Below, in pieces: positions 2,526 to 40,682 of a stretch of DNA of 46,881 bases (its first letter is position 1; the number at the start of each line of letters is the position of its first letter). The translations under genes were made by a program, and so were the position numbers. The notes under the pieces are model-generated. The model made no database searches, was not told the DNA's origin, and worked only from the letters and a program-made list of their open reading frames with translations. The stretch lies in the IMG/VR virus record IMGVR_UViG_3300018065_000012; one strand, given 5' to 3'. This DNA comes from a virus. Its lineage: Duplodnaviria; Heunggongvirae; Uroviricota; Caudoviricetes.

Positions 2526-2554
2526 TTGAAAGTTTGCCGTCATAAGTGTATAAT
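2526..2554 (+). promoter_or_regulatory. sigma70-like promoter TTGAAA-N17-TATAAT (copy 1 of a repeated promoter motif)
   Basis: TTGAAA 2526-2531, 17-nt spacer, TATAAT 2549-2554. Same architecture at 3639, 33608 and 40655. Confidence 0.6.
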
Positions 2555-2583
2555 GTATTGATTGGATTGATCTTTTACAAACG

Positions 2584-2658
2584 TTGCGGAGTGGAGAAGT
2601 AGAATCTCGTCTGGCTCATAACCAGAAGGTCGCTGGTGCAATTCCAGCCTCCGCTACC
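2584..2658 (+). tRNA. tRNA-Met(CAU)-like (possibly initiator or Ile2 type); position 1:72 unpaired
   Basis: Cloverleaf by eye: D-stem GAGA/TCTC, anticodon stem TCTGG/CCAGA with loop CUCAUAA, variable AGGTC, T-arm GCTGG-TGCAATT-CCAGC, acceptor GCGGAG/CTCCGC, ends ACCA. The T-loop is non-canonical (G55). Confidence 0.5.
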
Positions 2659-2665
2659 AGACTGA

Positions 2666-2688
2666 CAAGTGGGTTAGTTCCACTTTTT
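2666..2688 (+). terminator. rho-independent terminator-like hairpin (AAGTGG-GTTAGTT-CCACTT + TTTTT)
   Basis: 6-bp stem, 7-nt loop, followed by T5, immediately after the tRNA-Met-like gene. Confidence 0.45.
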
Positions 2689-2689
2689 G

Positions 2690-3062
2690 GTTAGCTCAGT
2701 GCCGATTAATGGCTAAACAGGGAAACCCCGCTGAGCTTTGAAAACAGTTCTCGCTGAAGCCGAAATATCAAAGGGCGCTTTGCGGGACGGGCCTCCGAGA
2801 ACACACGACGCAGTTCTCATGGGAGCCGTGCGAGGACTTAATATTTAAGGTGAGTGAAATGTTTTGTTTTAGATTTGCCGAACAATCTGCCTCGTTACTC
2901 ATGCGAAAGCATGAGCGCGGTATTGCCGCGTCGGGGCGACTTATTTTGTCACCCAGTTTGACAAAACAAGAAGTCGTCCTGAATACGAATGATACCAGTT
3001 GACAAGGTTCGGCGAATGAAGAAAAATGAACGCCGGACCTTGAAAAGTTCGGCGTTTTTTTG
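2690..3062 (+). other. non-coding or structured region of about 370 nt (possible small RNA); an alternative 47-aa ORF lies at 2861-3004
   Basis: No long + ORF. Multiple hairpins: AGCTCAG...CTGAGCT, CTCATGC-GAAA-GCATGAG (GNRA tetraloop), CGCGG-TATTG-CCGCG, TTGTCA...TGACAA. Ends in a strong terminator. An ATG at 2861 with AAGGTGAG SD gives a 47-aa ORF that cannot be excluded. Confidence 0.3.
3030..3062 (+). terminator. rho-independent terminator (AACGCCGGAC...GTTCGGCGTT + T7)
   Basis: GC-rich imperfect inverted repeat followed by TTTTTTT. Confidence 0.6.
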
Positions 3063-3095
3063 TTGGCTAAATATAAAAGGAAGTGGGGGTGCGTC

Positions 3096-3632
3096 ATGAA
3101 GCGGGTTTTACTGCTCGGAAGAAACGGAAGAATCCTTGATGTAGTCTGCTGGAAGGCAGCGATCAATCTGACGTACTTCCGTGGATGCGGAAGGGATGTC
3201 GTGTTCCCGCTTGAATATCATGATGTTGAGGTTCGTTCTCAATATCAGTCTTTCAAGCTTCCGGCGGTTATGATTCTGCTTGGCAACCGTGACCGCTACC
3301 CGAATAGTGACGTGCTTCCGCTGTCCCGTTCAAATGTGTTGCTTCGGGATGAATACACGTGCCAGTACTGCGGAAAGAAATTGTCTTTCACAAGCGGTAC
3401 GATCGACCACGTTTTTCCGCTGTGCAAGGGCGGCACCAATACGTGGAGAAATGTGGTTGCGTGTTGCGAAGACTGTAACAACGAAAAGGATGACTTGAGA
3501 CTGGAACAGTACACGAAGCAGACGGGTAAGAAGCTGAAGAAAAAGCCACGGACTCCAAGCCGTGGGGTGCTGTTCAGGTCTTATGTTGAAAAGGAAGGTT
3601 ACGGCTGTTGGAAACCTTACATCAGCGTGTAA
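3096..3632 (+). CDS. HNH homing endonuclease
   Basis: CQYCGKK ... TIDHVFPLCKGG...N...VACCEDCNNEK: an HNH/zinc-finger nuclease motif. ATG at 3096 with AAGGAAG SD; the ORF-track frame starts at 3060. Confidence 0.8.
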   Translation: MKRVLLLGRNGRILDVVCWKAAINLTYFRGCGRDVVFPLEYHDVEVRSQYQSFKLPAVMILLGNRDRYPNSDVLPLSRSNVLLRDEYTCQYCGKKLSFTSGTIDHVFPLCKGGTNTWRNVVACCEDCNNEKDDLRLEQYTKQTGKKLKKKPRTPSRGVLFRSYVEKEGYGCWKPYISV

Positions 3633-3638
3633 TTTTCC

Positions 3639-3667
3639 TTGAAAATGTTCTTTGACAATTGTATAAC
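3639..3667 (+). promoter_or_regulatory. sigma70-like promoter TTGAAA-N17-TATAAC (copy 2), upstream of tRNA cluster 1
   Basis: TTGAAA 3639-3644, 17-nt spacer, TATAAC 3662-3667. Same motif family as 2526. Confidence 0.55.
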
Positions 3668-3680
3668 GTAATAGCGGAAT

Positions 3681-3757
3681 TGGAGCTGTAGCTCAACTGG
3701 TCAGAGTATCGGACTGTCGATCCGAGGGTTGCGGGTTCGAGTCCCGTCAGCTCCGCC
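3681..3757 (+). tRNA. tRNA-Asp(GUC)
   Basis: Acceptor GGAGCTG/CAGCTCC, D GCTC/GAGT, anticodon stem TCGGA/TCCGA loop CUGUCGA, T-arm GCGGG-TTCGAGT-CCCGT, discriminator G, CCA. Confidence 0.8.
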
Positions 3758-3765
3758 AGATGACA

Positions 3766-3793
3766 ACGCAGTGGGGAATTCCCCACTGCTTTT
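3766..3793 (+). promoter_or_regulatory. inter-tRNA hairpin CAGTGGGG-AATT-CCCCACTG followed by CTTTTGG (processing or terminator-like)
   Basis: Perfect 8-bp stem with a 4-nt loop between two tRNA genes. Confidence 0.4.
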
Positions 3794-3869
3794 GGGCGGT
3801 TAGTTCAGTTGGTAGAACGCATGGATCACAACCATGAGGTCACTGGTTCAAGTCCAGTACCGCCCACCA
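3794..3869 (+). tRNA. tRNA-Val(CAC)
   Basis: Acceptor GGGCGGT/ACCGCCC, D GTTC/GAAC, anticodon stem CATGG/CCATG loop AUCACAA, T-arm ACTGG-TTCAAGT-CCAGT, A73, CCA. Anchored to ORF-track ATG 3834. Confidence 0.8.
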
Positions 3870-3877
3870 GAAACAAA

Positions 3878-3954
3878 CGGAAGGTTAAGGTATTTGATTC
3901 CGAGTCCTTGGTTGAATTATATGCGTTATGCGCCAGCTTTGGGTTGGCCTTCCG
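3878..3954 (+). other. 77-nt element enclosed by a perfect 7-bp helix CGGAAGG/CCTTCCG (structured RNA or degenerate tRNA-like)
   Basis: tRNA-sized unit with an acceptor-like closing helix, but the interior does not fold into a canonical cloverleaf. Confidence 0.25.
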
Positions 3955-3964
3955 TGAATAAAAT

Positions 3965-4036
3965 CCAGCACGCTTCAGTGATGGGATACTTCTCCATTTT
4001 AGGAAAAAAAGCAACCTGTCGCGTTTTTTGGTGCTG
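3965..4036 (+). ncRNA. Bracketed tRNA-array element A (minimal copy of the module-bracketed family)
   Basis: 5' module CCAGCAC-GCTTCAGTG...GATACTTC, 3' module GCGTTTTTTGGTGCTGG. Terminal helix CCAGCAC/GTGCTGG. No tRNA-like insert. Confidence 0.55.
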
Positions 4037-4041
4037 GTTTA

Positions 4042-4117
4042 TGGCCCTGTGATGTAATTGGAAACATGTCAGGTTTTCAGCCTGATTTTTGGGGTTCGAG
4101 TCCCCACAGGGTCACCA
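4042..4117 (+). tRNA. tRNA-Glu(UUC)
   Basis: Acceptor GGCCCTG/CAGGGTC (G2-U71), D ATGT/ACAT, anticodon stem TCAGG/CCTGA loop UUUUCAG, T-arm TGGGG-TTCGAGT-CCCCA, A73, CCA. Confidence 0.8.
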
Positions 4118-4127
4118 AAAAATAATT

Positions 4128-4261
4128 CCAGTACGCTTCAGTGAAGAGATACTTCGACTTGTAATCGAGAGGTTGCGGGTTCGAGTCCCGTCGGTTTGCT
4201 TCGGCAAACTGTAGCTCAATTGGCAGAGCGCTAAATACCTCTTTGCGTTTTTTGGTACTGG
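4128..4261 (+). ncRNA. Bracketed element B carrying a circularly permuted tRNA-Thr(UGU)-like core
   Basis: Order in DNA: 5' module, anticodon arm TTCGA-CUUGUAA-TCGAG, variable AGGTT, T-arm GCGGG-TTCGAGT-CCCGT, acceptor 3' strand CGGTTTG, then C-TTCG-G cap, acceptor 5' strand CAAACTG, TA, D-arm GCTC-AATTGGCA-GAGC, G26, 3' module. The D-arm, anticodon loop and variable loop are identical to the genuine tRNA-Thr(UGU) at 12586. Confidence 0.55.
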
Positions 4262-4269
4262 AATTTTTC

Positions 4270-4346
4270 GGGGATGAAGACGAAGTGGACGAGTCACTGC
4301 CCTGTCACGGCAGAGTAAGCGGGTTCAAGTCCCGTCATTCCCGCCA
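4270..4346 (+). tRNA. tRNA-Asp(GUC), second divergent copy
   Basis: Acceptor GGGGATG/CATTCCC (G4-U69), 3-bp D-stem, anticodon stem CTGCC/GGCAG loop CUGUCAC, T-arm GCGGG-TTCAAGT-CCCGT, G73, CCA. Confidence 0.7.
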
Positions 4347-4355
4347 AGTTTACGT

Positions 4356-4430
4356 TCCGGCGTGGCCCAACGGTAGGGCAGCTGGCTGTTAACCAGTTCA
4401 TTGGAAGTTCGACTCTTCCCGCCGGAGCCA
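4356..4430 (+). tRNA. tRNA-Asn(GUU)
   Basis: Acceptor TCCGGCG/CGCCGGA, D GCCC/GGGC, anticodon stem GCTGG/CCAGT loop CUGUUAA, T-arm GGAAG-TTCGACT-CTTCC, G73, CCA. Confidence 0.8.
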
Positions 4431-4433
4431 TTT

Positions 4434-4520
4434 GCGCAAGTGCTGGAACAGGTAGACAGGCCAGTTTGAGGGACTGGTGTCCGAAAGGGCGTGGGAGTTC
4501 GAATCTCCCCTTGCGCACCA
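4434..4520 (+). tRNA. tRNA-Leu(GAG), class II
   Basis: Acceptor GCGCAAG/CTTGCGC, anticodon stem CCAGT/ACTGG loop UUGAGGG, long variable arm TGTCCGAAAGGGCGT, T-arm GGGAG-TTCGAAT-CTCCC, A73, CCA. Confidence 0.8.
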
Positions 4521-4628
4521 AATAATTTTTTGATAAAGTGCAATAGGAAAGGAGAAACAACAAATGCTTGATCTCACTTGTACCAAAGGGGGTCTGCCAT
4601 GTTAGAGCCTTAACGAAAGGAGCTAAAC

Positions 4629-5018
4629 ATGAGCAGAACCTTCAAGAAGTACCCACGGCACTGGTATAGGCGTCCAAGCGGACGTAAGAGAGCGCTGGTG
4701 AATGGGGTAAGGAAACGGGCTGTGCCTCCCGACCCTTACGATGATATTCACCCCGACAGACAGTGCTTTAGTGCAGACAAAGTTGGTTTGGAGTTGCACA
4801 AGTTGGGATGGAGCAACGAAAAGATTGCCAAGCGTTTGAGTTGGAGATTCAAAGTTCCTTACTTGGTGATTTGGCACAGCATTATCCCCGACAAACCGTT
4901 TGATTGGTGGTGGTCTTGCAAGTGTAAGGAATGCAATGAAAAATACCAAGCTTGGCGGGAGTGGCGCGGAGGAATGCGTCTTTATTCTTGGGATGAGTTG
5001 GCAGTGGAACGCGGCTGA
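4629..5018 (+). CDS. hypothetical protein (basic N-terminus, Trp/Cys-rich)
   Basis: ATG with AAAGGAG SD; 129 aa; no motif recognised. Confidence 0.5.
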   Translation: MSRTFKKYPRHWYRRPSGRKRALVNGVRKRAVPPDPYDDIHPDRQCFSADKVGLELHKLGWSNEKIAKRLSWRFKVPYLVIWHSIIPDKPFDWWWSCKCKECNEKYQAWREWRGGMRLYSWDELAVERG

Positions 5019-5036
5019 GACAAGGAAGAATAGCGG

Positions 5037-5119
5037 TGTGACGAAACTGGTAAACGTGCATGGCTTAGAACCATGTGCCCTTTGTGGGCTTGAGGGTTCG
5101 ACTCCCTTCACCGCTACCA
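5037..5119 (+). tRNA. tRNA-Leu(UAG), class II
   Basis: Acceptor AGCGGTG/CACCGCT, anticodon stem CATGG/CCATG loop CUUAGAA, variable arm TGCCCTTTGTGGGCT, T-arm GAGGG-TTCGACT-CCCTT, A73, CCA. Confidence 0.8.
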
Positions 5120-5135
5120 TTTGAGGAAAGAGCAA

Positions 5136-5894
5136 ATGACAGATATCATTGTTCTGACTCACAACAAGGAAGAGAAAACCTGTCGTTGTTTTGAATCCAT
5201 TGCGTTGAATACAAAAAATTATCGGGTGCTTTGGGTTGACAATGGCTCAGAAGAAGCAAGCATTCAAAAGGTTTTGCCGTTTGCTGAAAAGCTTGAAAAC
5301 TTTCGCTTGATGCGCAACAAGGAAAATGAAGGGTTTTCAAAAGGGGTCAATTGCGCCTTGCGTCTTTTCTTGTTTGACGGATTATCTGATCACCTTATCT
5401 TGCTGAACAATGACGTTGTTGTGACGAAAGGTTGGCTTGATCATTTGATTGCTGCGATGAAGAAATCAGGTTTGGATGCAATTGGCCCAGTGACATCAGA
5501 CAATTGTCAACAAAGCCTTGAAGCATTACGGCCTCAATTGAGTAGAAAATTGCCGGAGTTCACGGACGAAACGACAGAGGAAAAAGCGAGAATATTATAT
5601 GAGGACGCAGGTAGTGCAGTTTATCCGGTGACTTCAATCTTGACTTTTTTCTGTGTGTTGTTTCGCAGGGAAACGGTTGAACAAATCGGGTTGCTTGATG
5701 AAAACATTTTCGCCTACGGTGAAGATAACGATTATTGTGAGCGAATGAAACGCACGGGGAAGAAAATGGGATTAGCTGTTGGAATTTACGTTGAGCATGA
5801 TCACGGCGCAACGGCTCAGTTGTTTGGAGACAGCTGGAAAGAGAAACAAATGAAAAAGGCTTCGGCGTATATCCAGCAGAAATATAATCTTTAG
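5136..5894 (+). CDS. Family 2 glycosyltransferase (GT-A fold)
   Basis: IIVLTHN...VDNGS...LLNNDVVV... and YGEDNDYCERM (DxD/ED motifs typical of GT2). ATG 5136 with GAGGAAAG SD; the ORF-track frame opens at TTG 5121. Confidence 0.7.
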   Translation: MTDIIVLTHNKEEKTCRCFESIALNTKNYRVLWVDNGSEEASIQKVLPFAEKLENFRLMRNKENEGFSKGVNCALRLFLFDGLSDHLILLNNDVVVTKGWLDHLIAAMKKSGLDAIGPVTSDNCQQSLEALRPQLSRKLPEFTDETTEEKARILYEDAGSAVYPVTSILTFFCVLFRRETVEQIGLLDENIFAYGEDNDYCERMKRTGKKMGLAVGIYVEHDHGATAQLFGDSWKEKQMKKASAYIQQKYNL

Positions 5895-5981
5895 GCGTTG
5901 TGGTGAAACTGGCAGACACGCATGATTCAGGGTCATGTTCCCTTTTTGGGAGTGAGGGTTCGACTCCCTCCAACGCCACCA
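5894..5981 (+). tRNA. tRNA-Leu(CAG), class II
   Basis: Acceptor GGCGTTG/CAACGCC, anticodon stem CATGA/TCATG loop UUCAGGG, variable arm TTCCCTTTTTGGGAG, T-arm GAGGG-TTCGACT-CCCTC, A73, CCA. The first G overlaps the upstream stop codon. Confidence 0.8.
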
Positions 5982-5983
5982 TC

Positions 5984-6058
5984 GGCCCTATGGAGTAATC
6001 GGAAACTCACCAGATTCTCAGTCTGGAATTCAGGGTTCGAGTCCCTGTAGGGTCACCA
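5984..6058 (+). tRNA. tRNA-Glu(CUC)
   Basis: Acceptor GGCCCTA/TAGGGTC, D GAGT/ACTC, anticodon stem CCAGA/TCTGG loop UUCUCAG, T-arm CAGGG-TTCGAGT-CCCTG, A73, CCA. Confidence 0.8.
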
Positions 6059-6089
6059 GCTTCGGATTATGAATTGCTTAAAAGATAAA

Positions 6090-6166
6090 GGGCGATTAGC
6101 TCAGCTGGACAGAGCACTTGCTCGACAAGCAAGGGGTCAGTGGTTCGAGTCCACTATCGCCCACCA
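6090..6166 (+). tRNA. tRNA-Val(GAC)
   Basis: Acceptor GGGCGAT/ATCGCCC, D GCTC/GAGC, anticodon stem CTTGC/GCAAG loop UCGACAA (C33 is unusual), T-arm AGTGG-TTCGAGT-CCACT, A73, CCA. Anchored to ORF-track frames 6069/6118. Confidence 0.75.
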
Positions 6167-6177
6167 TTGTAGGAATC

Positions 6178-6255
6178 GGACGCGTAGCTCAGATTGGTCA
6201 GAGCACTTCTCTTACAAGGAAGGGGTCACAGGTTCGAGTCCTGTCGCGTCCACCA
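6178..6255 (+). tRNA. tRNA-Val(UAC)
   Basis: Acceptor GGACGCG/CGCGTCC, D GCTC/GAGC, anticodon stem CTTCT/GGAAG loop CUUACAA, T-arm ACAGG-TTCGAGT-CCTGT, A73, CCA. Confidence 0.8.
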
Positions 6256-6273
6256 AATGAAAGGCGGTGGAAA

Positions 6274-6507
6274 ATGGAAAACAAGGCGCTACCAAAGATC
6301 AAACTACGGGCCGTAAAAGAACCACAAAAAGAAAAGGCTCCAAAGAACACGTATTTGCTCACCATGCGCTTTCCAATCACCGCACTTGACGATGTTGAAG
6401 CGCGCGAACGTGCTTGGAAGCATATGAAGTTTCATAACTTTGTTAAGCTTGATGCAAAGCTTCAACGTGTTCGTGACAAGAAGGCACCGGAGAAAGTAAA
6501 TCTATGA
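6274..6507 (+). CDS. hypothetical protein (77 aa, Lys-rich)
   Basis: ATG 6274 after the tRNA. The ORF-track entry 6118-6507 begins inside tRNA genes, so the shorter start was chosen. Confidence 0.45.
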   Translation: MENKALPKIKLRAVKEPQKEKAPKNTYLLTMRFPITALDDVEARERAWKHMKFHNFVKLDAKLQRVRDKKAPEKVNL

Positions 6508-6932
6508 TTACAGTGACGTGTAATGGCTGTTTTGACGGGTTGCATCCCGGCCACTTGTTTTATCTTGGTTATTGTCGAGCGCAAGGTGACCGTTTGGTCG
6601 TTGGGATCAATTCCGATGAATACATAGCCAACAAGAAAAGAACAAAGCCGTATTTTGATGCTAAGCAACGTAAAGAAGTATTGCTGGCGCTCAACATTGC
6701 TGAAGATGTAATTGTGTTTGATGAACCGAATCCAAACGAATTCATCCGTAAGGTTCATCCGCAAGTGCATTGTACGGGTGAAGAATACGGCTATGAATGT
6801 GCTGAGTCAGTAATTTGTAATGAGCTTGGAATCAAATTGGTATTGGTTCCAAGAACGGCAATATGGTCAACGGGAAGTTTACCGTTGATTGGAATGAAAT
6901 GGGTTGCTGATTTTATGAATAGCGGAAAATGA
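6504..6932 (+). CDS. Nucleotidyltransferase of the HldE/RfaE domain II type (heptose-1-phosphate adenylyltransferase-like or cytidylyltransferase)
   Basis: VTCNGCFDGLHPGHLFYL is the HxGH nucleotidyltransferase signature as in RfaE/HldE and TagD. ATGA overlap with the upstream gene. Confidence 0.7.
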   Translation: MITVTCNGCFDGLHPGHLFYLGYCRAQGDRLVVGINSDEYIANKKRTKPYFDAKQRKEVLLALNIAEDVIVFDEPNPNEFIRKVHPQVHCTGEEYGYECAESVICNELGIKLVLVPRTAIWSTGSLPLIGMKWVADFMNSGK

Positions 6933-6946
6933 ACGTGGAGGGGAAA

Positions 6947-7306
6947 ATGGGCAAAAACTCGCAAGATAAAGGTGATTTGAGCAAGGTTATGATCATAGGT
7001 GCCTTGATGAAGAAAGACAAAAAGGTACTTGATACAATTGGAGAAAATCACAGATTTGATCTTGCGTTTTATGAAGAAGGGACAAGATGTTTCAAAACGG
7101 TTCAATGCAAAACAGGACAGTACAAAAACGGTTGCGTGATTTTTCCTACTTGTAGTGTTGTCAAGAATTCCAAAACTGGAAAACACGAAAGAAGGACTTA
7201 TAAAGGTCAAGTGGACTTTTTTTGGAGTGTATTGTCAAAAGAAAGAAAAGTGTTATCTTGTCCCGGAGAAAATTGCCGGTCAATCTTACACGTACTTAAG
7301 AGTTGA
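6947..7306 (+). CDS. hypothetical protein
   Basis: ATG 6947 with GGAGGGG SD (ORF-track frame from 6929); ends at 7306. Confidence 0.45.
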   Translation: MGKNSQDKGDLSKVMIIGALMKKDKKVLDTIGENHRFDLAFYEEGTRCFKTVQCKTGQYKNGCVIFPTCSVVKNSKTGKHERRTYKGQVDFFWSVLSKERKVLSCPGENCRSILHVLKS

Positions 7307-7363
7307 AAAACCAAAAGTCAAATGCAACAGGATAAACCGAGCTGAAGATTATGAATTATAATC

Positions 7364-7455
7364 GGGGGGATGGCTGAGCGGCTTAAAGCGCACGGTTGCT
7401 AACCGTGTGGGCGTTAGTAGCGTCTCGTGGGTTCGAATCCCACTCCCCCCGCCAT
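7364..7455 (+). tRNA. tRNA-Ser(GCU), class II
   Basis: Acceptor GGGGGGA/TCCCCCC, anticodon stem CACGG/CCGTG loop UUGCUAA, long variable arm, T-arm GTGGG-TTCGAAT-CCCAC, G73, CCA. Confidence 0.8.
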
Positions 7456-7460
7456 TCAAG

Positions 7461-7521
7461 GAGGGCTAAACCAGTGAGGTGTTAAAGCCTCCGCAGGTTC
7501 GAATCCTGTCCCCTCCGCCAC
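7461..7521 (+). pseudogene. 61-nt tRNA-like mini-element (acceptor helix, T-arm and CCA, but no D-arm)
   Basis: GGAGGG(C)...GCAGG-TTCGAAT-CCTGT-CCCCTCC-G-CCA. Interior has a GAGG-UGUUAAAG-CCUC hairpin. Too short for a tRNA. Confidence 0.3.
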
Positions 7522-7542
7522 TTTCAAAGAAAGGAGACAAGT

Positions 7543-7698
7543 GTGTCAGATGCCAAAAAGTCTCGCAAACTGGAACGCATCAAAAGGCGCATGGAAAACG
7601 TCGTTGACGACTGCGAATCGCTTTTGAAGATTTGCAATGGCGACTTGCGCATGAAAGAATTGCGGGACAAAGCACTTGAGTTTTACAAGCTTATTTAA
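7543..7698 (+). CDS. small helical hypothetical protein (51 aa)
   Basis: GTG start 5-6 nt after AAAGGAGA. ...SRKLERIKRRMENVVDDCESLLKICNGDLRMKELRDKALEFYKLI*. The stop abuts tRNA-Ser(UGA). Confidence 0.35.
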   Translation: MSDAKKSRKLERIKRRMENVVDDCESLLKICNGDLRMKELRDKALEFYKLI

Positions 7699-7789
7699 GG
7701 AAGGTTGGCAGAGTGGTTGAATGCGCTGGTTTTGAAAACCAGTGGGCGTCAAAAACGTCTCATGGGTTCGAATCCCATACCTTCCTCCA
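7699..7789 (+). tRNA. tRNA-Ser(UGA), class II
   Basis: Acceptor GGAAGGT/ACCTTCC, anticodon stem CTGGT/ACCAG loop UUUGAAA, long variable arm, T-arm ATGGG-TTCGAAT-CCCAT, U73, CCA. Anchored to ORF-track TTG 7705. Confidence 0.8.
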
Positions 7790-7803
7790 TATATGAAATT
7801 GAT

Positions 7804-7944
7804 ATGAGACAAAACTTGACTTTGACTGACCGGATTTGTATTGTTGTCTTTGTATCGTTGATGATTCTGATGCAACCATTATGGGTTGCGTTGAGAATTC
7901 TTCAATGGTTGATCCGGTTTTGGAAACCTGACTTTCATTGGTAA
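7804..7944 (+). CDS. small hydrophobic protein (46 aa, single TM helix)
   Basis: MRQNLTLTDRICIVVFVSLMILMQPLWVALRILQWLIRFWKPDFHW; in frame with ORF-track entry 7705-7944, starting after the tRNA. Confidence 0.4.
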   Translation: MRQNLTLTDRICIVVFVSLMILMQPLWVALRILQWLIRFWKPDFHW

Positions 7945-7947
7945 TGT

Positions 7948-8024
7948 GTGCCCGTGGCTCAAATGGATAGAGCACCTGACTACGGATCAGGAGGTTGTAG
8001 GTTCGAGTCCTACCGGGCATGCCA
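7948..8024 (+). tRNA. tRNA-Arg(ACG)
   Basis: Acceptor GTGCCCG/CGGGCAT, D GCTC/GAGC, anticodon stem CCTGA/TCAGG loop CUACGGA, T-arm GTAGG-TTCGAGT-CCTAC, G73, CCA. Confidence 0.8.
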
Positions 8025-8041
8025 ACTCAAAGGAATTGCAA

Positions 8042-8122
8042 ATGAAATTCTTTGATGGAACATGGGGATGTTTGATTTGGATTGTTTTGATAGGCGGTTT
8101 ACTGGTTTACTACTTGGCCTGA
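8042..8122 (+). CDS. tiny hydrophobic ORF (26 aa)
   Basis: AAAGGAA SD then ATG. MKFFDGTWGCLIWIVLIGGLLVYYLA*. Confidence 0.25.
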   Translation: MKFFDGTWGCLIWIVLIGGLLVYYLA

Positions 8123-8134
8123 TTGGAATTCTAT

Positions 8135-8211
8135 GGTGAGAGTAGCTCAGATGGTAGAGCGTCTGGTTGTGGTCCAGAAAGTCGCGGGTTCAAGTCCCGT
8201 CTCTCACCCCA
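8135..8211 (+). tRNA. tRNA-His(GUG) with genomically encoded G-1
   Basis: G-1 pairs with C73. Acceptor GTGAGAG/CTCTCAC, D GCTC/GAGC, anticodon stem TCTGG/CCAGA loop UUGUGGU, T-arm GCGGG-TTCAAGT-CCCGT, CCA. Confidence 0.8.
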
Positions 8212-8232
8212 ATATCAACGAAAGGATGAAAT

Positions 8233-8520: not shown

Positions 8521-8536
8521 TTGTAGGGAACAATCG

Positions 8537-34752: not shown

Positions 34753-34755
34753 TAC

Positions 34756-34830: not shown

Positions 34831-34836
34831 ATCTGT

Positions 34837-34928: not shown

Positions 34929-34932
34929 TTAA

Positions 34933-35018
34933 GGAGCGGTAGTCTAATTGGTAAGGCAGTGGGCTGTAAACCCACCGGCATTGCGCCATTGGAGGTTCGA
35001 GTCCTCCCCGCTCCACCA
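34933..35018 (+). tRNA. tRNA-Tyr(GUA), class II
   Basis: Acceptor GGAGCGG/CCGCTCC, D GTCT/AGGC, anticodon stem GTGGG/CCCAC loop CUGUAAA, variable arm CGGCATTGCGCCAT, T-arm GGAGG-TTCGAGT-CCTCC, A73, CCA. Confidence 0.8.
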
Positions 35019-35039
35019 TTTTTCTTTTTCAGCAAAAAT

Positions 35040-35061
35040 CTTTTATATTCGGTTGTATAAT
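35040..35061 (+). promoter_or_regulatory. weaker promoter-like site sharing the GGTTGTATAAT -10 element (no good -35)
   Basis: TATAAT 35056-35061 preceded by GGTTG as in the other promoters; the -35 region is CAAAAA. Confidence 0.3.
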
Positions 35062-35083
35062 ATAAGGGTAATTCTCACAGGGG

Positions 35084-35338
35084 ATGAATATGGAAACTCG
35101 GCCAGAAACGGGCAAAATGAAGTTTGGCGACGACTGGTCTGGAATATTCATCCGAGGCGACAATGCTTTCAATTATCATATGCAACTCAAAGAAGTTTTG
35201 AAAGACAATGGCGGTGAATTCGGCATTATTGCGAAACATACAATCCGAGATTTGATTGATCTTTTGGAATCTTGCGAAGAGCATAATGATATCAAACCGC
35301 AAAAATTGAAATCATTCGAGGAATGCCGTTATGAATGA
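35084..35338 (+). CDS. hypothetical protein (84 aa)
   Basis: ORF-track frame; overlaps the dCMP deaminase start by 8 nt. Confidence 0.45.
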   Translation: MNMETRPETGKMKFGDDWSGIFIRGDNAFNYHMQLKEVLKDNGGEFGIIAKHTIRDLIDLLESCEEHNDIKPQKLKSFEECRYE

Positions 35339-35786
35339 TAGACCATCCATTGACCAGACGATGATGGATATTGCAAAAACTTGGTCCTTTCGATCAAGAT
35401 GTTTACGGCGACAAGTGGGTTCAGTAATCGTAAAAGACAAACATGTTTTGACTTCTGGTTATAATGGCCCGCCAAAAGGGTTGCCTCATTGCGATGAATG
35501 TGGTGGTTGTTTGCGGCAAGAAATGGATTTGCCGTCAGGCGAACGTCAAGAACTTTGCAGAGGTTCTCACGCAGAATTGAATGCAATTATTCAAGCGGCA
35601 ATATTTGGGATAAGCGTAAAAGGCGCAACGCTGTATTGCACAAACTTTCCTTGTAACTTTTGTGCCAAAGCAATTGTTCAAGCTGAGATTAAAAAAGTCA
35701 TTTACGAAGATGACTATACGGAAGACGATAACATGGCAAAACAAATGCTTGAACATGTTGGAATTAAAATGGAGAAATTTGAATGA
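35331..35786 (+). CDS. cd: dCMP deaminase (cytidine/deoxycytidylate deaminase family)
   Basis: Zinc-binding HAELNAI and PCNFCAKAI (H[AC]E...PCxxC) motifs; size and context as in T4-type dCMP deaminases. Confidence 0.8.
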   Translation: MNDRPSIDQTMMDIAKTWSFRSRCLRRQVGSVIVKDKHVLTSGYNGPPKGLPHCDECGGCLRQEMDLPSGERQELCRGSHAELNAIIQAAIFGISVKGATLYCTNFPCNFCAKAIVQAEIKKVIYEDDYTEDDNMAKQMLEHVGIKMEKFE

Positions 35787-35962
35787 GCTGGAAAGATTTT
35801 CTTTACGGCGCGGCATCTGTTCTCGACTTGTCTGGTTCAATGGGCAATGCGCAAGTGAATGAAATTTTGCGCAAGTCTGACGCGGAAGCATTGAGGTCAG
35901 ATTGGGAAGCAGTTGGACAAGACATGTGGAAGGCGATTGAACAATCTGAAGATGTCGGGTGA
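35783..35962 (+). CDS. small acidic hypothetical protein (59 aa), translationally coupled to cd
   Basis: ATGA overlap with the cd stop; MSWKDFLYGAASVLDLSGSMGNAQVNEILRKSDAEALRSDWEAVGQDMWKAIEQSEDVG*. The stop lies inside the next tRNA. Confidence 0.45.
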   Translation: MSWKDFLYGAASVLDLSGSMGNAQVNEILRKSDAEALRSDWEAVGQDMWKAIEQSEDVG

Positions 35963-36038
35963 GCGCAGCTGGTGCTGTGAGTGGCCTGCAAAGCCATTTG
36001 GCCTTTGGGTCCAACTGGTTCGATTCCAGCATCCGACT
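35954..36038 (+). tRNA. tRNA-Sec-like (8/4 'allo-tRNA' architecture) tRNA with GCA (Cys) anticodon
   Basis: 8-bp acceptor GTCGGGTG/CATCCGAC; 6-bp D-stem CGCAGC/GCTGTG with 4-nt loop TGGT; 6-bp anticodon stem AGTGGC/GCCATT with loop CUGCAAA; long variable arm TGGCCTTTGGGTCCAA; 4-bp T-stem CTGG/CCAG with loop TTCGATT; U73; no encoded CCA. Confidence 0.5.
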
Positions 36039-36056
36039 CTAATTTGGAGAACATGA

Positions 36057-36311
36057 ATGCCAAAAAGAAGTTTCCCGCTCAAGATCAGTTTTGATCATGA
36101 AATTGATCGAGATACGATGTTTTTTCTTGCTGTAAAGTTTGCGAGAGAATATCCAAAAGCAGCGACACAAATAATTGGAGCATTGGAAGGGGAACGGAAA
36201 TATTGCAAGATCAATTGTCCGTTCCCTTTTGTATGTAGTGAGTTTCCTTGCAAAACGCTTTGTTGTAACGCAGACTGCTGCGACAACGGCCACGCTTATA
36301 GGATGAGCTGA
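36057..36311 (+). CDS. hypothetical Cys-rich protein (84 aa)
   Basis: GGAG SD. The C-terminus has CKINCPFPFVCSEFPCKTLCCNADCCDNGH. Confidence 0.45.
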   Translation: MPKRSFPLKISFDHEIDRDTMFFLAVKFAREYPKAATQIIGALEGERKYCKINCPFPFVCSEFPCKTLCCNADCCDNGHAYRMS

Positions 36312-36685
36312 TGCAATACGAACTTGAAAATGGTTACAAGGTTTGGGTGAACGCGAAGACTTACCGCTCGAAATTGAACAAGCAAGTTTGCATCAAATGT
36401 TTGAAACAGTATTGGCCAGATGCAGATTCCGTTTGGGATGTTCAAGCAGAACTGAAATGGGAAGAAGGCAGGTTGTATATTTGTCCTTGTTCTTCTGTTA
36501 ACGGGCGCGATGAAAACCGCAGAGCAGGCCGATACAACGAAGGCCGGTTGATCGAACACGACCCACCGGAAGCTTGCCCATTCAAAACAGAGCATCTTGT
36601 CAGTTGTAATAAACAAGGTTTCATCTATTATAAAAGCCGCATTGAGGAGTATTGCGAAAAGAATTTCAAAAAGGTGAAAAGGTGA
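36311..36685 (+). CDS. hypothetical protein (124 aa, Cys-containing)
   Basis: TGATG overlap with the upstream gene. Confidence 0.5.
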   Translation: MQYELENGYKVWVNAKTYRSKLNKQVCIKCLKQYWPDADSVWDVQAELKWEEGRLYICPCSSVNGRDENRRAGRYNEGRLIEHDPPEACPFKTEHLVSCNKQGFIYYKSRIEEYCEKNFKKVKR

Positions 36686-36873
36686 AGCTGATTGTAAAAT
36701 TTGTCGTCTTGATTGCTGGAAGTTATCTTTGCTATTTGTCTTGGGCTGAGCCAAAAACAATTATTTGGCTGTATGGAAATTATATCATGCCGGTTTTCTT
36801 TGCATGTATTCCGTTTTATGCAGCATGGTGGTGCTATCAAGACTTAAAGAGCGCCCGTAGCTCAGATGGATAG
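36682..36873 (+). CDS. small membrane protein (about 63 aa, two hydrophobic helices)
   Basis: GTG start overlapping the upstream TGA (GTGA). VKLIVKFVVLIAGSYLCYLSW...IMPVFFACIPFYAAWWCY. The 3' end overlaps tRNA-Arg(CCG). The ORF-track frame starts at 36652. Confidence 0.4.
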   Translation: MKLIVKFVVLIAGSYLCYLSWAEPKTIIWLYGNYIMPVFFACIPFYAAWWCYQDLKSARSSDG

Positions 36874-36927
36874 AGCGTCTGCCTCCGGAGCAGAAGGTCA
36901 CAGGTTCGAGTCCTGTCGGGCGTGCCA
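36851..36927 (+). tRNA. tRNA-Arg(CCG)
   Basis: Acceptor GCGCCCG/CGGGCGT, D GCTC/GAGC, anticodon stem TCTGC/GCAGA loop CUCCGGA, T-arm ACAGG-TTCGAGT-CCTGT, G73, CCA. Confidence 0.8.
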
Positions 36928-36946
36928 AACATACGAGGATGAAAGA

Positions 36947-37204
36947 ATGATAATCATGGAGCATGGAAACGTCGATAAACAAGTACCCAATCAAGGCGCG
37001 TGGGATATTCATGTTGCGGGGCAAGAAAAATATCCACTGGTGGTGATCCTTTGTCCCAAATGTCAAAAAGTATCTTGTCTCCGTAATCATACGATTCATC
37101 GCGACGGGACAGTTTCACCAAGCTTGGTCTGTCCAAGAGATGAATGTAATTTTCATGAAATGATCAAGTTGAAAGACTGGAAAGGGTTGCCTCAAAAATT
37201 GTAG
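36947..37204 (+). CDS. small zinc-ribbon-like protein (85 aa)
   Basis: ATG 36947 after GAGGATGAAAGA (the ORF-track frame from 36866 opens inside the tRNA). CPKCQ...CPRDEC. Confidence 0.45.
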   Translation: MIIMEHGNVDKQVPNQGAWDIHVAGQEKYPLVVILCPKCQKVSCLRNHTIHRDGTVSPSLVCPRDECNFHEMIKLKDWKGLPQKL

Positions 37205-37207
37205 TTT

Positions 37208-37283
37208 GGGCCGGTAACTCAATTGGTAGAGAACCGTTCTTATACAGCGGTAGTCGTTGGTTCGAATCCAACCCGGCCTACCA
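37208..37283 (+). tRNA. tRNA-Ile(UAU)
   Basis: Acceptor GGGCCGG/CCGGCCT, D ACTC/GAGA (3 bp), anticodon stem CCGTT/AGCGG loop CUUAUAC, T-arm GTTGG-TTCGAAT-CCAAC, A73, CCA. Anchored to ORF-track TTG 37223. Confidence 0.75.
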
Positions 37284-37304
37284 AATTCAAGATGGAGTGG
37301 AATT

Positions 37305-37559
37305 ATGAAAGAGGGACGCATAAGCAAAGGTGGCGTGGGAAATCCTCCAACAAGACCAAGACCCAAGCCACCAAAGGGACAAGGAGGCTCTCAAAAGTTG
37401 AAAGAAGTTTTGGAAGCCCTTGAATTCTATGCTGATGAAAGCAATTGGAAAAACGGGACGTCAGTTCATTACGAATGGGCGACGTTTGCTGAGTTGGATG
37501 AAGGCAAACGGGCAAGAAAAGCACTTGAAAAATATCGGGGTGTAGGAAAGTCTGGTTAA
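37305..37559 (+). CDS. hypothetical protein (84 aa)
   Basis: ATG 37305 after GGAGTGG (the ORF-track frame starts at 37257 inside the tRNA). The last 24 nt overlap tRNA-Pro(CGG). Confidence 0.4.
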   Translation: MKEGRISKGGVGNPPTRPRPKPPKGQGGSQKLKEVLEALEFYADESNWKNGTSVHYEWATFAELDEGKRARKALEKYRGVGKSG

Positions 37560-37613
37560 TCCGCTACGTTCGGGACGTAGAGATCGCCGGTTCAAATCCG
37601 GCCACCCCGACCA
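37536..37613 (+). tRNA. tRNA-Pro(CGG)
   Basis: Acceptor CGGGGTG/CACCCCG, D GGAA/ATCC (3 bp), anticodon stem CTACG/CGTAG loop UUCGGGA, T-arm GCCGG-TTCAAAT-CCGGC, A73, CCA. Confidence 0.8.
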
Positions 37614-37629
37614 CTTTAGGAAAAGGCTG

Positions 37630-37764
37630 ATGAACGATCCAAAAGCTTATCAATACACAGGCTCATTGAGTGACAAGTTCTTTATTGTGTTGATCATTTT
37701 AGCAATGATTTCTGTTCCTATTTTTATTATAATTGCGTTTTTGTATTGGGTTCCAAGGAGCTAA
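37630..37764 (+). CDS. small single-TM membrane protein (44 aa)
   Basis: AGGAAAAGG SD then ATG 37630. MNDPKAYQYTGSLSDKFFIVLIILAMISVPIFIIIAFLYWVPRS*. The stop lies 1 nt before the next ATG. Confidence 0.4.
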   Translation: MNDPKAYQYTGSLSDKFFIVLIILAMISVPIFIIIAFLYWVPRS

Positions 37765-37765
37765 A

Positions 37766-38008
37766 ATGCTTTACACGGTTGGCGAGACAGAAAAATACGA
37801 GCAATATATAAAAGAGCAAGGCACGATTTCAAAGGCAGTTGGTGGCTCAGTTTGGAGTTCAAAAGAAGCCGCGCAAAAGTATTTGAAAGAAAGAGGGTTG
37901 CTTGGAAAATTTACTGTTTACGGCATTGACGCCGGTTGGAATGATACTGAATATACAGGTAATCCTTGGCGTGATTTGAAAATTGTTGCAAAAATAATTG
38001 AACTTTGA
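37766..38008 (+). CDS. hypothetical protein (80 aa)
   Basis: ATG 37766 after AAGGAG (the ORF-track frame starts at 37733). Confidence 0.5.
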   Translation: MLYTVGETEKYEQYIKEQGTISKAVGGSVWSSKEAAQKYLKERGLLGKFTVYGIDAGWNDTEYTGNPWRDLKIVAKIIEL

Positions 38009-38082
38009 GCGGGTGTAGCTTAATGGTAAAGCTCCAGCCTTCCAAGCTGATCACGTGGGTTCGATTCCCATCGCCCGCTCCA
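38009..38082 (+). tRNA. tRNA-Gly(UCC)
   Basis: Acceptor GCGGGTG/CGCCCGC, D GCTT/AAGC, anticodon stem CCAGC/GCTGA (C27/A43 mismatch) loop CUUCCAA, T-arm GTGGG-TTCGATT-CCCAT, U73, CCA. Confidence 0.7.
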
Positions 38083-38087
38083 TTTAA

Positions 38088-38161
38088 GCGGCTGTAGCTC
38101 AGTGGTAGAGCGCAAGGTTGCCAATCTTGCTACGAGGGTTCGATTCCCTTCAGCCGCTCCA
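38088..38161 (+). tRNA. tRNA-Gly(GCC)
   Basis: Acceptor GCGGCTG/CAGCCGC, D GCTC/GAGC, anticodon stem CAAGG/TCTTG loop UUGCCAA, T-arm GAGGG-TTCGATT-CCCTT, U73, CCA. Confidence 0.8.
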
Positions 38162-38223
38162 AAATTAAAGATGAAACGGAGATATATGATGAGCCAATCA
38201 CCTTTTGTTCGGGGGATTACATC

Positions 38224-38481
38224 ATGGACGCTCCAAAATGCGAACATCTGTTACCATTTTTGCAAGCTCAAACGCGGCTGATAACAAAACATTTGGGCGA
38301 GCATAAATGGTTCCAAAAAATTGAAAGTGAAAATGAAGCAGTTGGAGATTTCATTGAAAAGTTTGGGTGGGTAATGCGAGAATTCTTTTGTGGTTATTGT
38401 TGTGAACATCGTTATGAATGCGACATTGCCATAGAATACGATTTCTTGCCGCCAGAGAGGAAAAAGCAAAATGACCCTTGA
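38224..38481 (+). CDS. hypothetical protein (85 aa, Cys/His-containing)
   Basis: ORF-track frame; a GGGGGA lies upstream. Confidence 0.4.
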   Translation: MDAPKCEHLLPFLQAQTRLITKHLGEHKWFQKIESENEAVGDFIEKFGWVMREFFCGYCCEHRYECDIAIEYDFLPPERKKQNDP

Positions 38482-39274
38482 AGAAGCACGCAAACTTGTT
38501 TTGAAATCATTCAACAAAAGTGATTTCTATTACAACCATCAATCGCCGCATGGCTATACAAACTTCATTGACGGGATGGCGTGGGTTGGTTTATTGTGCG
38601 GCGCATGTCATCTTGTGGATGACAAAGAGTTGGCGGCATTAGCAGAAAACTACTTGAGAATGCTTTTGAAAGTTGGACCGGATGCAAGAAATTATGCGCC
38701 GATGAAAGTAAGAGACGACTGGATCAAATCTGAAACAGCTCCCGGATTTTGGTACCGTAAAAAGCCGCAGTCCTTCGCGGGGCCAGCGGCTTTATTGTTT
38801 GCTATCAACTGCGGCGCAAAATTGGATAACCCCTTCAACATTGAATCACGTGCCAAGTGGATGCGTTTCTTAAATCCATTCTTTGGTTATCTTGTGCGTT
38901 GGTTTCATTGGTTCAGACAGCATATCAATAGTCAGTTTATCGCTCATTTGATTAACGATTCCAAACCGCCAAGCTCAATGCTTTGGTTGTGCGAGGAAAA
39001 TCCTTTTTTCAGCGCTATTGCTGGAATTGAATGCAGTGTTGAATACCCGAAATCATGGAGCCGGTTTCAAAAGTATGAAACAAAAGACGTGGACGATATT
39101 CAACCGCTGAAAAACCGGAAACCATCAGCTTGGATTTTCAGAAGTTGGCCCAAGGCCGAATACACTGGCGCACTTCCTTACGCGGGCAGTGCTTATACGC
39201 CAACGGCAATGGTTGTTGGTGAATATTTGCAACAGCATTTGAGGAAGAAAAATGCCAAAGTACAAGACAGTTGA
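38471..39274 (+). CDS. hypothetical protein (267 aa, Trp/Phe-rich)
   Basis: Overlaps the upstream gene by 11 nt. No motif recognised. Confidence 0.5.
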   Translation: MTLEEARKLVLKSFNKSDFYYNHQSPHGYTNFIDGMAWVGLLCGACHLVDDKELAALAENYLRMLLKVGPDARNYAPMKVRDDWIKSETAPGFWYRKKPQSFAGPAALLFAINCGAKLDNPFNIESRAKWMRFLNPFFGYLVRWFHWFRQHINSQFIAHLINDSKPPSSMLWLCEENPFFSAIAGIECSVEYPKSWSRFQKYETKDVDDIQPLKNRKPSAWIFRSWPKAEYTGALPYAGSAYTPTAMVVGEYLQQHLRKKNAKVQDS

Positions 39275-39491
39275 GGAACTTGCGCAAGCATTCCAAACAG
39301 GTGAGTTTGGAGCAGATGGTCAAGTTATCAAGATTGAATCGGATGACATAAACGCTTCATTGGTTCGGGTAACTTGCGCAGAGGAAAGTCCTGACGAGTT
39401 TGAAATAATGTTCGAAGGATACGTACAAGGCGGTTATACAAAAGTGAAAAACGAGCTTGGGCCGTCTTTTGGAAGAGCGAAAAAAGAATGA
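39252..39491 (+). CDS. hypothetical acidic protein (79 aa)
   Basis: Overlaps the upstream gene by 23 nt. Confidence 0.45.
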   Translation: MPKYKTVEELAQAFQTGEFGADGQVIKIESDDINASLVRVTCAEESPDEFEIMFEGYVQGGYTKVKNELGPSFGRAKKE

Positions 39492-39494
39492 CGT

Positions 39495-39571
39495 CGGGGT
39501 GTGGCTCAGCTTGGTAGAGCGCTTGACTGGGGGTCAAGAGGTCGCTGGTTCAAATCCAGTCACCCCGACCA
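39495..39571 (+). tRNA. tRNA-Pro(GGG)
   Basis: Acceptor CGGGGTG/CACCCCG, D GCTC/GAGC, anticodon stem CTTGA/TCAAG loop CUGGGGG, T-arm GCTGG-TTCAAAT-CCAGT, A73, CCA. Confidence 0.8.
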
Positions 39572-39586
39572 TTTTGGAAACGGATA

Positions 39587-39814
39587 ATGATAGACAAAAA
39601 GCAAATAGAAATCGAAACACTAAAGCATAAAGTCAACGAACAAAAAGCGTTCATAATGCATTTGAAACGACTTTATGGCAGCGCGAGGCGGTGGGAACTT
39701 TCAAGAACGACACAGTGCCACAAGTGCCACGTCGACGCGGATGCTGAATTTTTTGCATTCATGAGAGCAATGCCTCATATTGAATGGGACAACTGGGGAA
39801 ACGCTAAAAAATGA
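39587..39814 (+). CDS. hypothetical protein (75 aa)
   Basis: ORF-track frame; Cys/His pairs (CHKCH). Confidence 0.45.
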   Translation: MIDKKQIEIETLKHKVNEQKAFIMHLKRLYGSARRWELSRTTQCHKCHVDADAEFFAFMRAMPHIEWDNWGNAKK

Positions 39815-40113
39815 GTTGGGCGAAGTATGCAAAAGAAACGTTGAAAAAGGGTCTTGACGCGGCTGTAAAGCCTCGTGGAAGCTCAATGAAGCCAAAGATT
39901 GAAAGTGGTGACGTTGTAACCATTGCCCCTTGTGACCCGTTCAGACTCAAGGTGGATGATATTGTTTTGGTTACAGTAAAAGGGAAAGACTATTTGCATT
40001 TGATCAAGGCGGTTGATAGCAAAAGGTTTTTGATTGGAAACAATCGTGGCGGGATAAATGGCTGGGTTGGCTGGAACTCAATTCATGGAAAAGCGGTAGA
40101 GGTTTCAAAATGA
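39811..40113 (+). CDS. S24/S26-like serine peptidase fold protein (LexA/UmuD/signal-peptidase-like catalytic domain only)
   Basis: GSSMKPKIESGDVVTI (cf. GDSMxPxxxxGDxxxV) and a downstream Lys in HLIKAV. ATGA overlap with the upstream gene. Confidence 0.45.
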   Translation: MSWAKYAKETLKKGLDAAVKPRGSSMKPKIESGDVVTIAPCDPFRLKVDDIVLVTVKGKDYLHLIKAVDSKRFLIGNNRGGINGWVGWNSIHGKAVEVSK

Positions 40114-40646
40114 TTCGACGTATCAACTTGTACGCTGGCCCATGTGCAGGAAAGTCGACCATTGCGGCGCATGTGTTTTCTCATTTCAGAGCCAAGCAAG
40201 TCAACATTGAGCTTGTGACAGAATATGTGAAATCTTGGGCATATGAAGAGCGCAAAATTACATCGTATGATCAATTGTACTTACTCGCAAAACAGTTGCG
40301 GCAAGAGGATTTAATTTTGCGAAACGGAGTTGACCTAATCGTAACGGATTCCCCGATTTTACTTTCTGCTTGTTACGCGCAGAAATATGGGTTTCCAAGC
40401 GTTTCTGCGTTGCGGGAAATTGCTGCTGAGTTTGAGAAAACATACCCGTCGTTAAACATTTTTATCGAACGCGGAAGGACGCCTTACAATCAAAGTGGTC
40501 GTTACGAGACTTACGAACAAGCAGTTGAGATGGATGCGGCAATTGAAAAAACCATTTTTGCTGCTGGGGTTAAAGAGTTGTTCAGCGTATCATTGGATAC
40601 TGAAATAATTATCAAATTGATTGAAACAAAGTTAGAGACTTTTTAA
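40110..40646 (+). CDS. P-loop NTPase (predicted kinase/AAA-like ATPase)
   Basis: Walker A GPCAGKST near the N-terminus. ATGA overlap with the upstream gene. Confidence 0.55.
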   Translation: MIRRINLYAGPCAGKSTIAAHVFSHFRAKQVNIELVTEYVKSWAYEERKITSYDQLYLLAKQLRQEDLILRNGVDLIVTDSPILLSACYAQKYGFPSVSALREIAAEFEKTYPSLNIFIERGRTPYNQSGRYETYEQAVEMDAAIEKTIFAAGVKELFSVSLDTEIIIKLIETKLETF

Positions 40647-40654
40647 TTTTTCCC

Positions 40655-40682
40655 TTGAAAGCTGTCGGCTTGGTTGTATAAT
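40655..40682 (+). promoter_or_regulatory. sigma70-like promoter TTGAAA-N16-TATAAT (copy 4)
   Basis: TTGAAA 40655-40660, spacer ending GGTTG, TATAAT 40677-40682. Confidence 0.55.

Follow-up and report, generated by a model that had tools for sequence, protein, structure and literature searches.

Four sites of the form TTGAAA-N16/17-TATAAY in the phage DNA stretch IMGVR_UViG_3300018065_000012 are likely, judging by their sequence, to be genuine promoters of the sigma-70/sigma-A type that head the main transcription units of a phage non-coding-RNA island. The stretch, hereafter called the window, comprises 46.9 kb with a G+C content of about 45% and essentially every gene on the + strand; the sites are named after their first position as P2526, P3639, P33608, and P40655. 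As a promoter mechanism they are ordinary, and the more interesting result lies in the RNAs downstream of them, including a family of bracketed, Y-like RNAs. The sites give four confident starts of transcription units in a genome without a close match among GenBank phages, they describe the tRNA island as a few long mixed operons together with short stand-alone RNA genes, and they provide an initial consensus with which the remaining genome can be scanned, in contrast to a second motif found ahead of the fibre genes.

An exact search for TTGAAA-N15-18-TATAAY returned exactly the four sites that the initial annotation had named, all on the + strand (Table 1), against an expected count of 0.10 (standard deviation 0.33), and none of 100 dinucleotide shuffles reached four. 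Allowing one mismatch per hexamer revealed no extra site of comparable quality, and even at one mismatch the motif is missing from a further 8.9 kb of this phage that lie upstream of the window. In a generic sigma-70 scan of the 46.9 kb, 11/12 matches occurred only at 2526, 33608, and 40655, the site at 3639 being missed solely through its -10 ending in C. All four sites are intergenic and on the coding strand, starting 7-37 nt after the stop of the upstream open reading frame (ORF), in a window of which, by a generous estimate, at most 13% is unannotated.

The -35 hexamer is TTGAAA at all four sites and agrees with TTGACA at five of six positions, while the -10 hexamer is TATAAT at 2549, 33631, and 40677, as well as at a fifth site (35056), and TATAAC at P3639. 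With 17, 17, 17, and 16 nt, the spacers lie within the 17 ± 1 nt of sigma-70 promoters. TG directly abuts the -10 (TGTATAAY) at five of five sites, the fifth included, which places it at -14/-13 and not at the -15/-14 of an extended -10 (TGnTATAAT), a form that none of the window sites displays. At three of the four sites the 30 nt upstream are 73-87% A+T; the window as a whole has 55%. The hexamers are alike among the four sites and the spacers and downstream sequences are unrelated, so the earlier description of the promoters as near-identical holds for the hexamers but not for the spacers. CC precedes TTGAAA at three of four sites, and GGTTG, which had been thought to end the spacer usually, is present at two of four and at the fifth site.

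The sites sit directly upstream of RNA genes, as had been claimed for all five: an RNA gene begins 30 nt past the -10 of P2526 (tRNA-Met), 14 nt past that of P3639 (tRNA-Asp) and within this range behind P40655, and an RNA of about 200 nt follows P33608, but the fifth site stands before ORF 35084. The classic layout of promoter, RNA, and terminator is seen in two of the four units, P2526 and P33608, as stand-alone RNA genes. P2526 would drive tRNA-Met together with a structured RNA of about 400 nt (2660-3064), which folds more stably than its shuffles (z = -5.35), ends in a strong terminator and contains a block of about 90 nt (~2747-2834) that is nearly invariant compared with the related contig L147 and conserved like the adjacent tRNA. 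P33608 would drive the structured RNA of about 200 nt (fold z = -6.96 vs shuffles), and P40655 would head a Y-RNA-like gene. P3639 would head a long mixed operon of co-transcribed tRNAs, Y-like RNAs, and small ORFs, whose RNAs are presumably excised by RNase P and other host nucleases.

Table 1. Coordinates of promoter-like sites and RNA features in the window and of related sites in other contigs (L numbers).
Feature	Position	Strand	Description
P2526	2526-2554	+	-35 TTGAAA 2526-2531, 17-nt spacer, -10 TATAAT 2549-2554; 30 nt upstream 87% A+T
Unit 1	2585-3064	+	tRNA-Met(CAT) 2585-2659, then structured RNA of ~400 nt; intrinsic terminator 3028-3057 with T-run
P3639	3639-3667	+	TTGAAA, 17-nt spacer, TATAAC; begins 7 nt past stop of HNH ORF
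Unit 2, RNA island	3682-13244	+	9.6-kb run starting with tRNA-Asp (3682): 31 tRNAs, two bracketed (Y-like) RNAs (3965-4037, 4128-4261), interleaved ORFs
P33608	33608-33636	+	TTGAAA, 17-nt spacer, TATAAT; GATTTTCC ahead; 30 nt upstream 83% A+T
Structured small RNA, ~200 nt	33643-33848	+	intrinsic terminator 33817-33842 with TTTTTT
tRNA array	33892-35018	+	8 ARAGORN tRNAs, tRNA-like sequence 34836-34925, bracketed RNAs 34138-34271, 34281-34388, 34405-34514
P40655	40655-40682	+	TTGAAA, 16-nt spacer, TATAAT; TTTTTCCC ahead
Bracketed (Y-like) RNA, short insert	40706-40770	+	first gene behind P40655, 23 nt past -10
Long hairpin, conserved loop	40782-40842	+	orthologue in L023 at ~7640-7705
Fifth site	35042-35061	+	TTTATATT-CGGTTG-TATAAT, no -35; upstream of ORF 35084 and dCMP deaminase gene
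Second-class motif	40905-40924	+	TTTATATT-TTTCCT-TATAGT; ~80 nt upstream of ORF 41003-41494, then fibre ORF 41491
Looser relative of second motif	13364-13390	+	TTTATATT...TAGTAGA, upstream of ORF 13425; weak by-eye match to 40905
P33608 orthologue	L139 2205-2177	-	GATTTTCC TTGAAC-17-TATAAT, spacer unrelated; structured RNA and terminator follow
P2526 analogue	L147 9046-9018	-	TTGATT-17-TATATT, upstream of near-identical tRNA-Met and conserved ~90-nt block
P3639 counterpart	L147, gap after HNH gene		TTGACA-17-TATGGT, re-positioned, different hexamers
Promoters just upstream of bracketed RNAs	L002 8008; L023 7201; L110 5378; L131 3743; L097 6108		19-nt spacer in L131

In several respects the initial annotation claims too much. 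Four or five promoters are too few to drive each tRNA or small-RNA unit when there are 47-48 tRNAs, six bracketed RNAs, and over 25 ORFs to serve, and the claim also fails at 35954-39571, where tRNAs are wedged between small ORFs without such a promoter. Nor do the units contain RNA only, as genes for a glycosyltransferase, an epimerase, and an arginine decarboxylase, all three in unit 2, and for a dCMP deaminase lie inside them. That none of the promoters precedes a structural gene has no support either: between P3639 and the block of large fibre- and glycan-related genes (13425-33571) there is neither a convincing + strand intrinsic terminator nor a second consensus promoter, and 320 nt downstream of P40655 comes ORF 41003, with a fibre-like ORF with collagen repeats behind it. 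In this last interval the window shows no canonical terminator, only a hairpin with a long loop, whereas a clear terminator is found at the equivalent place in L002. The hairpin (Table 1) keeps a loop of about 40 nt (AACCUAYCAYACCACACCA..UUGGAUCGCCUCUAYAC) in L023, where the stem is different yet complementary; it could represent a small RNA of its own or else act in processing or termination.

Relatives of the phage were found via ORF 41003 (78-83% amino-acid identity) and via the sequence pattern of the bracketed RNAs, while the epimerase, the dCMP deaminase, and ORF 1107, used as IMG/VR queries, led to distant relatives or none and were of no use for the promoters. Ten further sigma-70-like promoters were tabulated from six related contigs; their -35 reads TTGAAA, TTGAAC, TTGACA, TTGCAA, or TTGATT, and their spacers measure 16-18 nt, in one case 19 nt. 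In the bracketed-RNA units of L002 and L110, a terminator precedes the promoter and a second one closes the RNAs. The triplets directly ahead of the -10 in the ten promoters are TGG, CAG, CTG, GGG, CCG, TTG, GTG, GAG, CCG, and CGC, so that TG abuts the hexamer in three of ten; TTCC precedes the -35 in L023 and L139 only, and TGGTATAAT, the extended -10 form, occurs only at L002 8008. At orthologous or analogous sites, compared in a few lineages, the hexamers and their spacing are kept and the spacer sequence is free, which is the pattern predicted by selection for promoter function and not by copying of a repeat. With GGTTG and CC not kept in the relatives, the phage-specific consensus CCTTGAAA...GGTTGTATAAT proposed earlier is unsupported, the shared core being generic sigma-70 with a preference for TTGAAA. 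In L023, a tmRNA gene (6817-7182) lies immediately upstream of a sigma-70-type promoter.

A rival account concerns how the sites are read. The promoters would serve a phage-encoded factor of the sigma-70 family or a polymerase modified by the phage, or stay in use throughout infection, given that stable RNAs need strong promoters. The sequence data leave the timing of the promoters unaddressed; about 56 kb have been seen of a genome that probably exceeds 180 kb, and a phage sigma or polymerase gene could lie in the remainder; and the second promoter-like motif implies that promoters of more than one class are probably at work in the phage. We nevertheless regard this account as unlikely, since the sites match TTGACA/TATAAT, the consensus of the primary bacterial sigma, at 11 of 12 positions and no sigma or polymerase gene is present in the window or its flanks. 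In T4, T5, T7, lambda, and SPO1, moreover, such sites are early promoters read by the host. By analogy with these studied phages, early timing and the use of host polymerase are reasonable for the four sites too; the primary-sigma holoenzyme of the host would read them without phage factors and hence early, and their near-consensus strength would give abundant stable RNA quickly.

Copying of one sequence, as a duplicated cassette or the end of a mobile element linked to the HNH gene, is a very improbable source of the similarity. TTTYCC ahead of the -35 and TTG before the -10 are common to three sites, and one site abuts the HNH homing-endonuclease gene, as such copying would have it. Against it, spacers and downstream sequences differ among the four sites, the orthologous sites of the relatives retain hexamers and spacing only, and the promoter behind the HNH gene of L147 has been rebuilt from another -35/-10 pair, a pattern of selection and not of a repeat. 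Still less credible are functionless chance matches: A+T-rich intergenic DNA favours TATAAT-like strings and the generic scan gave many 9/12 matches, only modestly above shuffles, but the exact motif exceeds its expectation as described, all four sites lie on one strand directly upstream of RNA genes, and six related contigs carry the motif at corresponding positions.

Several points weigh against the sites as sigma-70-type promoters that head the main RNA units. A strong terminator precedes the tRNA array at 33892-35018, which lacks a consensus promoter, so the four sites miss some of the RNA expression, and the HNH gene (3096-3632) sits between the terminator of unit 1 and P3639 without such a promoter. 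In P3639 itself the -10 ends in C, where a T is normally highly conserved. Several promoters of the relatives are weaker matches (TTGATT/TATATT, TTGCAA/TATAGT, the 19-nt spacer in L131), some were found by inspection upstream of RNA genes and form a biased sample, and the promoter at 3235 in L110 precedes a protein gene, by which the class is not RNA-specific. The consensus is generic for bacterial primary sigma factors, and the primary sigma of the host may prefer another. Start sites, strength, and timing are predictions.

In comparison with sigma-70 promoters, among them the strong ones of bacterial tRNA and rRNA operons that carry A+T-rich UP elements, the four sites share a -35 agreeing with TTGACA at five of six positions, a TATAAT (once TATAAC), a spacer of 16-17 nt, an A+T-rich upstream tract at most sites, and short leaders with RNA genes directly behind. 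They differ in that the -35 is invariably TTGAAA, the TG is at -14/-13 in place of the classical -15/-14, and one -10 ends in C. The tRNA region of T4 comprises eight tRNAs and two small stable RNAs from polycistronic precursors. It resembles the island in its mixture of phage tRNAs with small stable RNAs of unclear role and in its few sigma-70-type promoters with long precursors that need processing; it differs in scale, the island having 47-48 tRNAs, six Y-like RNAs, and many embedded protein genes. No sequence relationship to T4 emerged, nor did any of 50,697 GenBank phage records give a match.

The bracketed RNAs form a family with a common handle; the window contributes six of at least 12 distinct copies, which come from three lineages. 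Outside the window, handle RNAs are carried by L001/L002 (8088-8649), L022/L023 (7549-8597), L139, L147, L131, L083, L084, L097, and L110. The handle has a fixed register: on its 5' side, a 7-nt stem strand leads to GCUYCAG, a second 7-nt stem strand, and WUACUUC; after an insert of 9-225 nt, the 3' side brings the complement of the second strand, then CGNYUUUUG, and closes with the complement of the first. In an alignment of the handles of 12 copies, in whose selection the second stem (P2) was unused, 98.8% of cells form pairs, and double compensatory changes occur at 12 of the 14 pairs; none of 500 shuffles matched this, and slid alignments pair at 33-48%. For a subclass of 134-165 nt, an independent RNAalifold prediction places T-arm, closed acceptor stem, and D-arm on top of the handle, with compensatory changes in 20 of 31 pairs, and as modelled this subclass is a tRNA mimic. 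The other copies have inserts unlike tRNA.

A scan of IMG/VR for the handle pattern yielded 103 stretches, by estimate about the number expected by chance, and matches were kept only when both stems were complementary. The short-insert pattern gave 15 matches in 185,579 bacterial and archaeal genomes; because none of them had both complementary stems, no cellular copies were found. In the window, only tRNAs exceeded the Rfam threshold. Up to E<=5, the sole hits among the RNA after tRNA-Met, the RNA behind P33608, the 40782 hairpin, and the bracketed RNAs were sub-threshold ones to YrlA and permuted tmRNA, located in tRNA-like parts. Permuted functional tRNA genes and the brackets of self-cleaving ribozymes were considered for the bracketed elements and rejected in favour of Y RNAs, because copies lacking a tRNA share the handle, the loop closes the acceptor stem, and Ro60 genes adjoin.

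YrlA Y RNAs are tRNA-mimic partners of Ro60/Rsr (PMC4201824), and in Thermus phage phiLo the Yrl1 and Yrl2 RNAs lie upstream of Ro60 (PMC12135203). In L110, a terminator separates a handle RNA from the gene of a 599-aa protein with TROVE (1.3e-24) and vWA_Ro60 (1.9e-11) domains, and L084 and L097, both retrieved by the RNA pattern alone, carry homologues of this protein (46-49% identity) beside their handle RNAs; the window contains no Ro60 homologue. As in YrlA, Yrl1, and Yrl2, a conserved internal loop separates a terminal 5'-3' stem from a second stem in the handle RNAs; like YrlA (PMC4201824), they include a subclass with T-arm, closed acceptor stem, and D-arm; and like Yrl1 and Yrl2, copies stand just upstream of Ro60 genes (TROVE + vWA_Ro60) in three phage contigs. 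Known bacterial and phage Y RNAs carry the Ro-binding motif GNCGAAN0-1G / CGAA (PMC4201824, PMC12135203). This motif is absent from the handle, which has GCUYCAG, WUACUUC, and CGNYUUUUG in its place, and with the Rfam YrlA model, whose gathering threshold is 69 bits, the hits reach 24.4-31.7 bits, on tRNA-like parts only; both, like the lack of a Ro60 gene in the window, speak against simple membership among the Y RNAs. The handle RNAs also differ from YrlA, Yrl1, and Yrl2 in their many copies per genome and in inserts that are very unlike each other (9-225 nt). With a covarying family, a tRNA-mimic subclass, and copies beside Ro60 genes in three contigs, the bracketed RNAs are, from their sequences, probably divergent Y RNAs and a new phage group of them.

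Taking promoters and handle RNAs together, the chances seem to us evenly balanced that the promoters are expression signals of an undescribed multi-copy group of phage Y-like RNAs, in which a fixed handle presents interchangeable cargo (tRNA mimics, long structured inserts, short hairpins), acts with phage Ro60, and belongs to a module that is found across lineages and fired at the start of infection. Under this same joint proposal, the Y-like RNAs would redirect host RNA decay or protect phage tRNAs, and a module of promoter and handle RNA, in part with tRNA-Met, would be kept in several lineages of large, tRNA-rich phages. The handle family is in any case a concrete lead, open to testing, to the reason for Ro60 in large phages and to the role of the non-tRNA RNAs in tRNA arrays.

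A tRNA-Met(CAT) recurs beside handle RNAs and Ro60, at 2585-2659 in the window, 676-752 in L084, 5457-5531 in L097, and 8752-8828 in L002, which suggests a conserved module of Y-like RNA and, perhaps initiator, tRNA-Met. The copy in L084 resembles a bacterial initiator tRNA, and in the window copy the first acceptor pair is mismatched. The RNA of about 400 nt behind tRNA-Met holds GCCGAAAU within a stem-closed loop, a faintly Y-RNA-like feature. L002 (~8660-8745) and L023 (~7715-7800) share a conserved hairpin RNA with a loop, CGUCCUCCUCAC, like the 3' end of 16S rRNA, and none was seen in the window.

The fifth site, reported initially as a copy of the -10 only, was found as such (GGTTGTATAAT, TATAAT at 35056-35061, with CAAAAA in the place of the -35), but it does not belong to the same promoter class and fits a second motif, TTTATAYT-N6-TATADT. 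This pattern has two matches in the window against 0.05 expected, a figure to be read with the pattern's derivation from those two sites. Independent copies stand at the orthologous place before the homologue of ORF 41003 in L002 (9908) and L023 (9897, with a 4-nt gap), and another copy in L023 (6708) is upstream of the tmRNA; in the window, ARAGORN detected no tmRNA. The copies of the motif are intergenic and on the coding strand, and in three lineages one stands ahead of the fibre operon. The looser relative at 13364 precedes the first gene of the large-gene block, ORF 13425. With five or six sites, we propose the motif at low confidence as a candidate second promoter class, perhaps middle or late, with the fibre operon among its users; it, and not TTGAAA/TATAAY, would serve the fibre operon and the gene block at 35084.

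Because metagenome contigs, some reaching 182 kb and more, contain identical sequence, the window is regarded as a piece of the genome of a large, tRNA-rich phage. Neither megablast (8.6 kb) nor tblastn (ORF 41003) gave a match among the GenBank phage records. ARAGORN called 47 tRNA genes in the window and Rfam 46. They form two islands, 2585-13244 and 33892-39571, separated by a 20-kb block of large ORFs for Ig-like and beta-helix proteins, glycosyltransferases, and epimerases. Upstream of the window, the 8.9 kb of the same phage encode NrdD, a radical-SAM protein, and a caspase-like protein. In the second island, the tRNA-like sequence at 34836-34925 has a long variable arm and the anticodon loop CUGUAAA, apparently for Tyr; it received no ARAGORN call and scored 28.9 bits, below threshold, with the Rfam tRNA-Sec model. 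At the downstream end, the ORF with collagen repeats (Gly-X-Y) runs from 41491 past the window end at 46881, encodes at least 1797 aa, and is tail-fibre-like; it shows a strong purine skew and 53% G+C, and its likeness to phage tail-fibre families is via the collagen repeats only. Within the large-gene block, a perfect 13-bp hairpin (17305-17338) between two large ORFs encloses TTGAAA-16-TACAAT at 17317, with no T-run following on the + strand. This sequence was weighed as a sixth promoter and set aside as being buried in the hairpin, which may be an element of RNA stability or processing and not a promoter or terminator.

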